A program made the translations under genes and the position numbers. The notes below the pieces were generated by a model. The model was not told the DNA's origin. It saw nothing but the letters and a program-made list of their open reading frames with translations, and did no database searches. DNA of 64,000 nucleotides from Bradymonadia bacterium (GTDB lineage Bacteria > Myxococcota_A > Bradymonadia > UBA7976 > UBA1532), in NCBI GenBank assembly GCA_046290225.1, contig JBKAGE010000075.1, positions 64,001 to 128,000 of the forward strand, given 5' to 3'. Below, one piece after another: positions 28,485 through 42,227 of this stretch (the first letter of the stretch is position 1; each line of letters begins with the position of its first letter).

Positions 28485-28500
28485 TGGCACGGTCCATGCT
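28485..28500 (+). promoter_or_regulatory. Sigma54 -24/-12 promoter of the flgB operon
   Basis: TGGCAC-ggtcc-ATGCT with exact GG-N10-GC spacing. Confidence 0.75.
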
Positions 28501-37664: not shown

Positions 37665-38951
37665 ATGAGCAGTTTGCTGGGATCGATGTACACCGGAAAC
37701 TCGGGCATCCAGGTCAACGGGATCGGGGTGTCGGTGGTGGGCGACAACATCGCCAACACGAACACCACGGGTTTCAAGGCCTCCCGAGCGCACTTTCAAG
37801 AGACGTTCTCCCAGATGATGGTGAACACCCGCGGCTCGGATCAGCTGGGCAAGGGGGCTACGCTGCAACGCATCGAGAAGATGTTCTCTGCGGGCAGCTT
37901 CAAGGCCACGGGGGTGCCCACGGACATGGCGATCAACGGGGATGGCTTCTTCATCACCAATGATCCACAGCAGCCGGGGGCGAACATGTACACCCGCGCT
38001 GGGGCCTTCCGCTTCGACAACGAGAACTACCTGGTAGACCCTGGGGGCAACCGCGTGCAGGGCTTCTCCGCAGGCACGGATGGCACGGTGAACACCGCCC
38101 TGGGCGACATTCAGCTCGACGCCTCGATGATGCCGCCCTCGGCGACGACGACGGTGGAGATGCAGGCGAACCTGAACCCCGAGCCTTCGGAGGCGGGCCA
38201 GCCCCCGGACACCTTCCGCCAGGGCATGACCATCTACGACAGCACGGGGGTGAGCCGTCAGGTGACGGCGGTGTTCACGCCGAACGCCGGGAACGCGGGT
38301 CAGTGGGACGTGACGCTGGAGGTGCCCACCTCAGATCTGGCGGCGCCTGCTGATCCGAACGCCGAGTTCGAGTCGATCAACGTGGGCTCGATCACCTTCA
38401 ACGACTCCGGACGCCTGGATCAGCAGAACCTGAACAACCCGGTGGCCATCGGCTGGAACAACGCCGCCGCGGGTGCGGTGAGCTTCGACTTCGGCGATGA
38501 CATCCAGGGGGGTGGCACGGGGGCCTCGGGGGTGACGCAATACGCCCTGCAGCCGAGCCAGCTCTCTGATCTGCAGACGGACGGCAACGCCCCAGGCAGC
38601 CTCGACGGCGTCATCATCGACGATCAAGGCCGCATCAACATGGCCTACACCAACGGCGAGACCCGCATCGCCGGCCAGGTGGCCCTGGCCCGCTTCAATG
38701 ATCCCACCGAGCTGGTCTCGGTGGGCGGCAACGGCTTCATCGCCTCGCCCGCCAGTGGCGAAGCTGTGGTGGGCAACCCGGGCACTGGCGGCCGCGGCGC
38801 GGTGCAGTCGGGGGCCCTGGAAATGTCGAACGTAGAGCTCTCCGAGCAGTTCGTGGATCTGATCGCCTTCCAGCGTGGCTATCAGGGGAACGCACGAACG
38901 ATCACCACCGCCGATAATCTGCTTCAGGAGGTGATCCAGCTCGTCCGATAG
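37665..38951 (+). CDS. flgE: Flagellar hook protein FlgE
   Basis: GDNIANTNTTGFK, YTRAGAF, LEMSNVEL...QRGYQGNARTI. Confidence 0.96.
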   Translation: MSSLLGSMYTGNSGIQVNGIGVSVVGDNIANTNTTGFKASRAHFQETFSQMMVNTRGSDQLGKGATLQRIEKMFSAGSFKATGVPTDMAINGDGFFITNDPQQPGANMYTRAGAFRFDNENYLVDPGGNRVQGFSAGTDGTVNTALGDIQLDASMMPPSATTTVEMQANLNPEPSEAGQPPDTFRQGMTIYDSTGVSRQVTAVFTPNAGNAGQWDVTLEVPTSDLAAPADPNAEFESINVGSITFNDSGRLDQQNLNNPVAIGWNNAAAGAVSFDFGDDIQGGGTGASGVTQYALQPSQLSDLQTDGNAPGSLDGVIIDDQGRINMAYTNGETRIAGQVALARFNDPTELVSVGGNGFIASPASGEAVVGNPGTGGRGAVQSGALEMSNVELSEQFVDLIAFQRGYQGNARTITTADNLLQEVIQLVR

Positions 38952-38961
38952 ATTGTAGAGT

Positions 38962-38998
38962 GGGGCGCCCGCGTTATGGTGCGGGCGCGCTCTTTTTT
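38962..38998 (+). terminator. Intrinsic terminator after flgE
   Basis: gcgcccgc/gcgggcgc stem followed by ctctttttt. Confidence 0.7.
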
Positions 38999-39020: not shown

Positions 39021-39186
39021 GGTGGATGTCGACCCATGTCCGCCAGAGCGCTGTGTGCACGCCTATTTATCAAGCTCGCCTGATCATTGGGCGCGACCCA
39101 CGCCTTCTGATCCTCGACAGGCCCCTGGTTATCTGAGAGACCCCATCTGGCCACCTGACGCGACCCACGTCAGGTGGCTTTTTTTT
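39021..39186 (+). ncRNA. Candidate small RNA with three CGACCCA-loop hairpins, the last a terminator
   Basis: Hairpins 39021-39044, 39082-39112 and 39150-39178, each with CGACCCA at the apex; T8 tail; 5' end not defined. Confidence 0.55.
39150..39186 (+). terminator. Strong intrinsic terminator
   Basis: Perfect 11-bp stem gccacctgacg/cgtcaggtggc followed by 8 T. Confidence 0.85.
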
Positions 39187-39216
39187 ATGGCTCCATCACA
39201 CATGTGAGGGGGGCAT

Positions 39217-39759
39217 CGAATTGGGGGTCGACGGAGGTGGTGGCTGGGCCTTTGTAGGCAGTTATCGCTTCGCTCTGACTGCGTAGGCGCCGGGCCTTCG
39301 GCAGCCCTGCGGGCCGCCTCGTCTGGCGCGTACACGTTCAGGCACCTGCTGACGCAGGCACCTTCCCGGGTAGGCAGGGTCGCTCAATGCTGACGCATTG
39401 ATTGCTCGCTCCCCTGCGTAAAGAGCTTCTTCTGTATCTCGTTGCTTAACCCCGCCGGGGTTCGGCCTACCGCGAACCTGAAAGCCTCTGAGTATGAACG
39501 CTAGGCGTAAGCCCCAACAGCGTTGGAAGCAGCACAAAGCCACACCAAAAGTGACTTTTTACGCAGGGGAGCGAGCGAATAAGGCGAAGCCTTGAGCGAC
39601 CCTGCCTACCCGGAGGCCTGCTCGCGCCAGCGAGCGTGCCGACGTGTACGCAGCTCCAAGGCGGGCCGCAGGCCGGCCGACAGAGCTGCCTACGCAGGCG
39701 GAGCGAAGCGACGACTGCCTACAAAGGCCCAGCCACCACCTCCATCACTCCCCAATTCG
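39217..39759. mobile_element. Long palindromic REP/REPIN-like element, copy 1
   Basis: About 200-bp imperfect inverted arms containing GTAGGC motifs, around a 135-bp core (39423-39557); homologous to 54298-54811; no transposase in the window, so mobility is inferred. Confidence 0.7.
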
Positions 39760-39782: not shown

Positions 39783-40517
39783 TCAGATGCGGGTGAGCAC
39801 CATCGTCCTCGGACCATCGAGGCTCTCCGGGCGGGGATCGCCTGGGCCACCGCTGGCGAAGTAGAGCTGATCACCTTCGATGTGCATGAGCGCGCCGGAG
39901 GCGATGCCCAGAGCAGGACCACAGACAGGGGTGATGTCTACGGGGAAGGGGGACTGTCCGCCGTGTACGGTGAGCTGGGCAGCGGAAATGGTGTCGAAAC
40001 CCTTGCGCACCACCATGAAGCCGTTGCCGAACAAGAAGCTCATCTTGCCCTGAGGGGTGTCCATGCTCCAGGCGCCAGCAAGGCCCGGTAGATCGGCGCT
40101 GGTGGCCTCGGGCTTGACGCCGGCGGGGCCCAAAGCGGTGAAGACAAAGGGATAGTCCGCAGGCCACCAGAGGGCCTCGTCTTCGCCAATGGAGACGCAG
40201 GCGACGACCCGGGCGTCCCCATGGGCATCGAGCACATCGCAGATGGCCTGCTTGCCTGCCTCGAGGTTGTGGATCGCGAAGAACAGGTTCATGGCTCCGG
40301 AGCCGAAATCAGAGCCATCCCCACTGCCAGCGGCGGATGTCTTCAGGGCTTGCTGAAGCTGGCCATAGAGCTGCTCGGCGAAGGCTTGATCGGCTTCGCT
40401 GTGCACCAGAATCTGCACACACAGATTCCCACTCTCACCGGTGGGGGCGGCCTGTGGTTCGCTCGGTGTCTCGGCAGGCTGTGCTTTGCCTTTGAGGAGG
40501 CGTGATAAAAAGCCCAT
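39783..40517 (-). CDS. Hypothetical two-domain protein
   Basis: MGFLSRLLK amphipathic start; C-terminal beta-rich domain (HIEGDQLYF...PRPESL); family not established. Confidence 0.65.
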   Translation of the reverse strand: MGFLSRLLKGKAQPAETPSEPQAAPTGESGNLCVQILVHSEADQAFAEQLYGQLQQALKTSAAGSGDGSDFGSGAMNLFFAIHNLEAGKQAICDVLDAHGDARVVACVSIGEDEALWWPADYPFVFTALGPAGVKPEATSADLPGLAGAWSMDTPQGKMSFLFGNGFMVVRKGFDTISAAQLTVHGGQSPFPVDITPVCGPALGIASGALMHIEGDQLYFASGGPGDPRPESLDGPRTMVLTRI

Positions 40518-40606: not shown

Positions 40607-42112
40607 CTACTGCACATCCACGTCGAAGCGGTCCCCCACGACGCCGCGCACGCGCAGCCAACTCACCCCGGGCTCCAACATCGCCTCGAAGCTGCATTGC
40701 TCCTCTGTGGTGCACGTGGCCAGCCCAACCTGCTCCACCTCTCGATTGCGGATCAGCGTCGCCTGAATCAGGCCGTCTCTTGCGCTCACTGTGAAGGTCA
40801 GCATCGTGGGTGTGTCCACGAACACGGGGATGTCGTGTATCCCTTCTTCGCAGTCCCAGATCACTGCCTCTGTGAGCGTCGACGGGGGCTCCAGTCGAGG
40901 TGTCTCTGCGTTCTCCGGGCAGTTCGGAGAGATCGAACGTGTCACCGCCAGGGTGTATGGCCCCTCGAAGAGCGGCTTCGTCGTCGCCACCACCGTATAG
41001 AGGCCCCCCTCGAGGTTCAGGGCCAGCTCGGGTCCGCTGCCGAAATACATCTCGTCGTCACCGAGCGGCGTCATGGGATCTCCGTCGACGTCGAGCACCG
41101 TAAGCCGGAGCTCTGTCCCGGGCTCGGCGCTCAGGTCGAAGCGGTGAAAGCCTGCTCTGCGGGTGGCAAAGGTGAAGACGTCTGCCCGGGCATCAGGGAA
41201 GCCCTCGTTGAACTGTAGCTCTGACGGATCACAGTCGTTGAGGTCGAAGCTGCCCATGATGGGGGTGTCCACCAGCACGTCACCATCGATGCCGCAGTCG
41301 GTGCGCCTCAGCTCAGCCTGGTACGCGTAAGCGCCGATGCCGCCGGCGAGCATCACCACATAGGGCCCTGGCATCAGGTCGAGCACCAGATCGTCACCCG
41401 CTTCGGCGATCCGTTGTCCGTCGTTGGCGGAGAACACCTGCGCTGTGGCCGCGAAGGCCTCCGAGCGAGTCGTGAGGGCGAGGGTGGAGAACTCCGCGGC
41501 GTCGAAGCGATACAGATCGACCGGGCCGCCGAGGAAGCAGCTCTCCGCCGTCAACATGCCCGATTGGAACTGGTCCGCTTCAGAGAGCACGAGATCGGGG
41601 AAGGGGGCGGCGCAGGGCTGCTCGAGGGCGAACGTGCCGCTCAAGGTGGAGCCTCCGGGGGTGCCCACCTGCAAACGGAACATCCCCGGACGTACACGCT
41701 CGAGCACGTGCACCAGGGCACCATCGTCACCGGCGACGCCCTCAGCGAAGACGTTGTCTCCGTCCAGCGCGAGCACAAAGGGGGTGCCCGGCGGCAGCCC
41801 CTCGCCGCGGATCACCAGGGTGGCCTCGCCGGTGATCAAGAAGTCACGTTGGATGCAGTCACCCATCAACTCGAAGGGGGTCTCGAAGGTGCCTATCTCG
41901 GGGCGCTCACACTCCAAACCCATGTCGGGTGTCAGCATCATGTCGCTCGGTGTCGGATTCATGTCGCTCGGCAGCCGGGCGTCGAGGGGGCCGGCATCTG
42001 CCGGGCCTGTGTCTGCGCTGGGCGCCGTGGCCGAGGTGTTGCTGTCGTCGCCACAGGCTGCGAGCAAGGTGAGCAGACCGCTCAGGGCCAGGGTGGGTCG
42101 CACGTTCGTCAT
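40607..42112 (-). CDS. Lipoprotein with repeated PPC-like beta-sandwich domains
   Basis: Lipobox LLAA-C; acidic Pro/Asp linker; DLYRF/DVFTF...PGPYVV/GLYTVV...YTL patterns. Confidence 0.7.
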   Translation of the reverse strand: MTNVRPTLALSGLLTLLAACGDDSNTSATAPSADTGPADAGPLDARLPSDMNPTPSDMMLTPDMGLECERPEIGTFETPFELMGDCIQRDFLITGEATLVIRGEGLPPGTPFVLALDGDNVFAEGVAGDDGALVHVLERVRPGMFRLQVGTPGGSTLSGTFALEQPCAAPFPDLVLSEADQFQSGMLTAESCFLGGPVDLYRFDAAEFSTLALTTRSEAFAATAQVFSANDGQRIAEAGDDLVLDLMPGPYVVMLAGGIGAYAYQAELRRTDCGIDGDVLVDTPIMGSFDLNDCDPSELQFNEGFPDARADVFTFATRRAGFHRFDLSAEPGTELRLTVLDVDGDPMTPLGDDEMYFGSGPELALNLEGGLYTVVATTKPLFEGPYTLAVTRSISPNCPENAETPRLEPPSTLTEAVIWDCEEGIHDIPVFVDTPTMLTFTVSARDGLIQATLIRNREVEQVGLATCTTEEQCSFEAMLEPGVSWLRVRGVVGDRFDVDVQ

Positions 42113-42227
42113 GCCTTTGTCTCCCGAGAAGCGCTCGCACATCGCAGAGCATTGCTGTCGAACTGGTCATACCACCACGGAGCACTCAGTGGCTCACGCT
42201 TCGGCCTGCCGACGCCGATGTAGAACT

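Follow-up and report, generated by a model that had tools for sequence, protein, structure and literature searches.

A conserved element behind flgE in a family of Bradymonadia: a candidate antisense RNA for flagellin mRNAs

Behind the flagellar hook gene flgE of a Bradymonadia bacterium lie three hairpins with different stems, each of which displays the same CGACCCA at its apex. What could such a set of identical loops serve for, and does it belong to the flagellum? In the preliminary description of the window (the whole stretch of 64,000 nucleotides that was analysed) the hairpins were taken for a multi-loop small RNA, perhaps linked to the flagellum, and both a multi-seed RNA and a protein sponge were considered.

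The element and its surroundings

The three copies of CGACCCA (39030, 39094 and 39161) were found again, as were the variant GACCCCA at 39139 and TTATC at 39067 and 39129. The arms of the stems (Table 1) were likewise borne out, and the T8 that follows the last of them ends at 39186.

Table 1. Features of the hook operon and of the element that follows it
Feature	Position	Strand	Remarks
Sigma-54-like promoter site before the flgB-like ORF that opens the flgE-terminated operon	28485..28499	+	10/11 match
flgE, flagellar hook protein	37665..38951	+	Pfam
Terminator-like hairpin between flgE and the RNA	38965..38998	+	U tract weak, C-interrupted
Candidate small RNA, ACCCA module of the family-wide flgE-linked RNA	39021..39186	+	
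Hairpin 1	39021..39044	+	arms 39021-39029/39036-39044; loop and 3' arm = GACCCAUGU
Hairpin 2	39082..39115	+	arms 39082-39093/39101-39112; in competition with another fold
Variant site GACCCCA	39136..39146	+	
Hairpin 3, intrinsic-terminator-like stem	39149..39186	+	arms 39149-39160/39168-39179; CGACCCA loop, U8

Folded separately, hairpins 1, 2 and 3 have energies of -11.6, -12.5 and -22.7 kcal/mol. When the whole RNA is folded, hairpins 1 and 3 hold and hairpin 2 is rivalled by an alternative structure; the probability that GACCC is unpaired amounts to 0.76-0.94, 0.03-0.44 and 0.54 in the three loops, respectively. The folding z-score is -1.78, with equally good folds in 12 of 200 shuffled sequences. 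The window has no excess of CGACCCA as such (12 copies observed against 14.5 expected), and although three copies within 250 nt form the single such cluster in the 8.58-Mb genome, the cluster alone is modest evidence, because about 0.08 of its kind are expected by chance. The real support for the element is its conservation in relatives, not the motif statistics. An overlapping ORF of 61 aa (39022-39207) is probably not coding: a Shine-Dalgarno (SD) sequence is absent in front of it and the alignment of relatives is filled with gaps. Comparison with Rfam 15 gave no match at the gathering threshold for the window (best score below threshold: FsrA, 18.1 of 80 bits) and no family for 14 flgE loci (best score 26.5 of 46 bits).

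The run that ends in flgE reads fliF-fliG-fliH-fliI-(MgtE_N protein)-fliK-flgD-flgE on the basis of Pfam matches, the names flgB, flgC and fliE for other ORFs of the operon being our own reading of the translations. The promoter site in front of the operon was scored against what we take to be the sigma-54 consensus, and rpoN is encoded in this genome. A sigma-70-type promoter, TTGTAG-N16-TATGGT, had been proposed within the flgE terminator; the sequence is present, but it matches at 8 of 12 positions and failed in the promoter scan. Neither that scan nor a search for sigma-54-like sites recognised an own promoter for the RNA in this genome. Six relatives from three genera carry a sigma-54-like site 4-9 nt past the flgE stop, which is absent here. 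Transcription from the operon would pass the hairpin that separates flgE from the RNA by read-through, or the RNA would be released by processing.

Immediately behind the RNA lies an imperfect inverted repeat (39217-39759, arms of about 220 nt). It is dispersed over 54 genomic loci, 36 of which measure at least 450 nt, with about 80-90% identity, and it is MITE-like and has no match in Rfam. Two ORFs without Pfam match are found on the minus strand between the RNA and fliL (39783-40517 and 40607-42142; 244 and 511 aa).

Conservation behind flgE in one family

A DNA similarity search of 40 relatives yielded short chance matches only, and homologues were therefore sought via flgE synteny. FlgE matches were obtained in 17 of the 24 family genomes, in all three genomes of the sister family and in none of the 13 others. 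All 17 flgE-bearing relatives within the family keep the loops behind the orthologous gene. Together with this genome, 18 of 18 have 2-6 copies of ACCCA behind flgE, 66 in total. Stems of at least 5 pairs carry 44 of the 66, against a mean of 4.5 in shuffled sequences, a contrast that is inflated by the hand-set segment ends around the clusters. In the terminal hairpin, aligned for 14 genomes, ACCCA is invariant, double changes occur at 8 of the 12 pairs, and none of 500 shuffles scores as high; the alignment omits four genomes, one in which the contig ends early and three with an altered terminal loop. The conservation behind flgE supports the early proposal of a multi-loop, flagellum-linked element outside Rfam.

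Homologues of the RNA were found in one family only. A covariance model of the terminal hairpin has strong matches at its 14 training loci alone, and its matches elsewhere among 41 and 151 genomes reach at most 37 bits and resemble generic terminators. Scans of sequence collections for the exact pattern returned 185 loci, 171 of them without sign of homology; the remaining 14 are homologues, 3 of which are new, and they derive from 11 of 116 genome loci (full flanks for 80) and 3 of 69 metagenome loci. The titles shown for these records are Bradymonadia, Myxococcota, Myxococcales or 'bacterium'. The three flgE loci of the sister family have no ACCCA module within 1000 nt; as these genomes are 88-91% complete, they may nevertheless carry the RNA. 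Directly past the flgE stop of one of them (L043, G027), at the place that the RNA holds in the other family, there is a tandem 12-nt repeat with GACCAAGG-like cores.

Two further observations concern similar hairpins elsewhere. A possible second, stand-alone RNA lies between genes and distant from flgE in one genome (L189, G019:C23:305969-306017, minus strand), where a terminator with a CGACCCA loop is preceded by a CUCCUUG stretch. L243, L252-L254 and some 20 similar loci, in many records titled Rhizobium, show a terminator-like hairpin with an ACCCAC loop, without upstream repeats and without flgE.

The gene that follows directly on the 3' side of the RNA is fliL in 13 of the 18 genomes, though not in this one, and the last hairpin is a terminator. 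Such an order would suit a cis element of the operon, either an attenuator or a processing or stability signal between flgE and fliL. The element is kept, however, in four genomes that lack fliL inside 1.5 kb, this genome among them, and a role in cis would leave unexplained the matches of 20-24 nt to distant flagellin starts that are described below. We regard such a role as very improbable.

The relatives have a second module upstream, between flgE and the ACCCA module. It contains 2-4 CANGGANG sites in 15 of the 17 and one site in one relative; none was found in G006, nor in the element of this genome. These sites, presumably of the CsrA type, hardly vary, and the scaffold that carries them has compensatory changes at 26 of its 44 pairs. 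The relatives also have a covarying upstream helix of about 30 pairs, a possible RNase III substrate, that is absent here. To judge from its sequence, the upstream module would act as a CsrA sponge, GGA hairpins having been described as CsrA sites (PMC10729762); this genome has lost it. With their several GGA hairpin loops the relatives, and only they, are reminiscent of CsrB/RsmZ-type sponges; the element in the window has no such loops, and the GGA sites of the relatives, unlike those of CsrB/RsmZ, stand on a long-stem scaffold that is fused to an antisense module, in bacteria that encode FliW. Of the 17 RNA-bearing relatives, 16 have csrA with an adjacent fliW, as does this genome. A csrA gene without adjacent fliW was also seen in 8 of 13 genomes of the same class that have no flagellin or FlgE match at the thresholds used (L044-L049, L070, L071). 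In this genome, which is 99.4% complete, Hfq gave no match, and neither did ProQ (PF04352).

Flagellin starts and leaders as the predicted target

The loop sequence GACCCA is complementary to the beginning of the flagellin reading frame, AUG GGU CUN, and a scan for UGGGUC, which had been proposed as a check, picks out flagellin mRNAs. Among the eight Flagellin_N matches of this genome the four canonical flagellins all begin with ATG GGT CTN, and NTGGGTC starts are found in 24 of its 5667 genes (crude gene calls). The flagellin gene C75:238169-239593 contains three TGGGTC sites in the region -200..+12, which is matched by only 3 of the 5667 genes; in its leader, TGGGTCG occurs at -178 and -153, each time on a predicted hairpin. 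On the side of the RNA, GACCCAUGU is complementary over 9 nt to one flagellin start and over 8 nt to three others, positions 39108-39115 form an 8-nt complement to the SD region of G000:C75:238169-239593, and positions 39136-39143 one to codons 2-4 of G000:C75:241774-243204. Another flagellin leader (G000:C75:243200-243440, minus strand) is A/C-rich and weakly structured and has three copies of ACCCA itself; these could pair in cis with their own start or compete with the RNA.

The comparison across genomes began with 179 flagellin matches in 21 genomes. Of the 137 matches in the family 92 yielded a distinct start, as did 19 of the 42 in the sister family, which makes 111 altogether; 12 rows were dropped at the motif search, and the others were left unfetched. 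Most of the recovered starts have CANGGAG across the SD region, followed by ATG GGT. UGGGUC lies on a hairpin in 14 of the 92 family leaders, often near -93. For this genome as a whole the count is 55 of 5649 genes, and it is zero for the 19 leaders of the sister family. GGT is the second codon of 58 of the 83 family flagellins that have Gly-2, and of 11 of 15 in the sister family; in the GC-rich genomes its share within gene bodies is 4-28%. Since GC-rich G027, in which the RNA was not found, shows the same bias (3 of 4, against 8% in gene bodies), the preference for GGT is not specific to the RNA. One clade of flagellins, as read off the tree, begins mostly with ATG GGA and would escape the GACCCA seed.

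Alternatively, a protein might bind the ACCCA loops, the RNA being a CsrB-like sponge whose motif is new; the complementarity to flagellins would then be incidental. In favour of such a function, the motif is short and invariant, sits on variable stems and recurs 2-6 times beside a GGA-loop module, and the seeds of 6-9 nt are short, with weak single-site energies in this genome. A sponge mimics the target of its protein, yet the flagellin leaders are enriched in hairpins with the complement (the 14 of 92 given above) and not in GACCCA hairpins (1 of 92); moreover, the flanks of the loops covary with the flagellin starts. We therefore consider this explanation rather improbable: of the two options raised initially, the multi-seed RNA is the better one, in view of the flagellin mRNAs found by the UGGGUC scan, and a sponge acting through CGACCCA loops is not supported.

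Longer complementarity is found in the relatives. Many of their RNAs carry CUCCAUGA or CUCCUUGAAG, which are complements of flagellin SD regions, and the stretches antisense to the SD and start of their own flagellins extend over 11-24 nt. In G002, 24 nt are paired (23 Watson-Crick pairs and one G-U) and span both the SD and the AUG; the corresponding values are 20 of 21 nt in G020 and 13 of 13 in G003 and G018. An ungapped Watson-Crick score of at least 10 was reached by 16 of 92 pairs of an RNA with its own flagellins, against 39 of 2160 pairs with background starts. For 12 of the 18 RNAs the best own match had an uncorrected p below 0.05 (9 after correction), as compared with 4 of 18 reversed RNAs, the background being 2100 SD-bearing starts from a single genome, namely this one. 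The RNAs also match flagellin starts from within their genus better than starts from outside it (p 0.0002 with Watson-Crick pairs and 0.0005 with G-U included, labels permuted over 12 genera). Taken one by one, 3-4 of the 12 genera are significant, and relatedness and base composition may exaggerate the combined value. By full duplex energy, cognate flagellins had no advantage over foreign ones.

In this genome the ungapped match to flagellins is not significant (corrected p 0.3; own-genus p 0.36-0.56). When single sites were ranked with accessibility taken into account, its four flagellins came 422nd, 485th, 805th and 1099th among 2919 starts (of 5667), and in C75:238169-239593, probably the main target, the start-codon site is predicted to lie within a stem (probability of being unpaired 0.01-0.02). 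As these tests are unsupportive, what is claimed for this genome is based on its homology with the relatives together with the repeated short seeds. Could the copy in this genome be a decaying, unexpressed remnant of an otherwise functional family RNA? It stands behind a terminator-like hairpin, has no recognisable promoter, and has lost the GGA module as well as the long anti-SD stretches. Its three loops are nevertheless exact, the stem of its terminator has been rebuilt through compensatory changes, and one flagellin leader of the same genome holds the matching sites in hairpins, so that we give decay little credence.

A test of strand on the duplexes, in which G-U was set against A-C, came out even (7 vs 7), and the minus strand folds more stably in this genome (-74.4 vs -67.7). 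Both would be compatible with a functional transcript from the minus strand, a decoy that mimics the flagellin leaders with CANGGAG and UGGGUC. Against this, the U tracts, the GGA loops and the sigma-54 sites of the six relatives are all on the plus strand, which is also the better fold in 14 of the 18 genomes, and a minus-strand decoy is hardly credible.

Proposed function and comparison with known RNAs

Position, conserved loops, covarying stems, complementarity to flagellin starts and leaders, and a genus-specific antisense fit are the observed parts. From these sequence data we propose, with a probability of roughly 0.65, that the flgE-linked RNA acts in trans as an antisense small RNA: its GACCCA loops would be directed against the AUGGGUC starts of flagellins and block their translation. 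A brake on flagellin translation is likely because the repeated loops exactly complement the flagellin start region; that the RNA pairs with flagellin mRNA, whichever the sign of the effect, appears highly probable on the same data. The RNA would be made together with the sigma-54-type hook operon, in this genome through read-through and processing and in the six relatives from their own sigma-54 site. Loop-loop contacts with UGGGUC may initiate pairing at the start, without Hfq or ProQ, and in the relatives the duplex would extend over the SD and the AUG. Repression of translation may thereby delay flagellin during hook assembly, and the RNA may also set the mix among the 4-11 flagellin paralogues. 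This genome would have a reduced form with three seeds of 7-9 nt, and its main target would probably be flagellin C75:238169-239593, which bears three UGGGUC sites.

The RNA might pair with flagellin mRNAs and do something other than simply repress them: it could displace CsrA from CANGGAG, open or stabilise the leader, or be titrated in its turn by these mRNAs. The anti-SD stretches indeed overlie the CsrA-type site CANGGAG, two of the three matching sites in this genome lie 153-178 nt upstream of the start, and FlaX of Vibrio cholerae is described as repressing four flagellar targets and inducing one (PMC11879080). The longest duplexes of the relatives, however, span SD and AUG, which in known cases blocks initiation, and these alternatives to repression are in our view unlikely.

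FlaX is also a close precedent for the proposed repression. It is a 3'-end RNA of an RpoN-dependent flagellar transcript, cut by RNase E from the flaA 3'UTR and bound by ProQ, and it pairs with flagellin mRNAs at several sites. On flaB there are three of them, one at the SD and two further upstream; FlaX thereby represses translation and influences the make-up of the filament (PMC11879080). For the present RNA, multi-site pairing with flagellin mRNAs is a prediction from complementarity and genus-level covariation, with a weak single-site rank in this genome. Its place in all 18 genomes is behind flgE and not in a flagellin 3'UTR, and it repeats one loop seed that is aimed at the start codon, in a genome without ProQ or Hfq match. 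The position behind flgE is shared with FlmE (CJnc230), an RNA of 98 nt reported in Campylobacter species, which in Campylobacter jejuni is co-transcribed from an RpoN promoter, depends on RNase III for its processing, pairs at ribosome-binding sites and represses flgM and Cj1387c, thereby raising flagellin, in a host that uses CsrA-FliW (PMC11187230). The present RNA likewise follows flgE in an operon preceded by a sigma-54-like site, with rpoN in the genome; its predicted targets, unlike those of FlmE, are the flagellins themselves. In a comparison by published description, no homology to either RNA was found.

In design the element resembles sX13 of Xanthomonas, which has three stems with C-rich apical loops, represses without Hfq via G-rich motifs near translation starts, and has a regulon of 63 genes (PMC3771888). 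The likeness, three stems with C-rich loops and no Hfq match, is one of design only, as loop motif, locus and regulon differ and Rfam gives no match. Pxr of the myxobacteria, with three stem-loops downstream of nla19, was considered and rejected, the locus here being another one and a match in Rfam lacking; 'accc' has no occurrence in the main text of the paper used for this comparison (PMC5568312). A literature search, mainly of non-subscription main texts, gave no description of the present RNA, though supplementary motif catalogues could hold one.

More tentatively, and as a possibility that we do not yet favour, the full-length family RNA could be a two-module switch for the transition from hook to filament, in which a CsrA-binding GGA scaffold is joined to antisense seeds that coevolve with the flagellin paralogues, in bacteria with FliW. 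Such a switch might free all flagellins from repression by CsrA and at the same time silence particular paralogues, or the CsrA dimer might serve as the matchmaker instead of Hfq and ProQ; the form found in this genome would then be a seed-only end state. McaS is a dual RNA, a ligand of CsrA that also pairs with mRNAs (PMC10729762), and in Bacillus subtilis CsrA promotes the pairing of SR1 with ahrC mRNA (PMC6546359), an RNA and a target that are unrelated to the present ones but set a precedent for what the GGA module might do in the relatives.

The best reading of the sequences is that the element is real and conserved, and that it represents a new family of flgE-linked antisense RNA of an already known kind. 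If so, it would add to the flagellar small RNAs a family from an uncultured lineage with a target that can be read from the sequence, the repeated loop mirroring the flagellin start. Species known for CsrA-inhibiting small RNAs have been reported to lack fliW, and whether bacteria that use FliW also employ RNA antagonists of CsrA was left open in the same paper (PMC4682653); the GGA module of the FliW-encoding relatives bears on this question. Finally, the RNA would unite an FlmE-like position with a FlaX-like action, which points to convergence in the control of the step from hook to filament.
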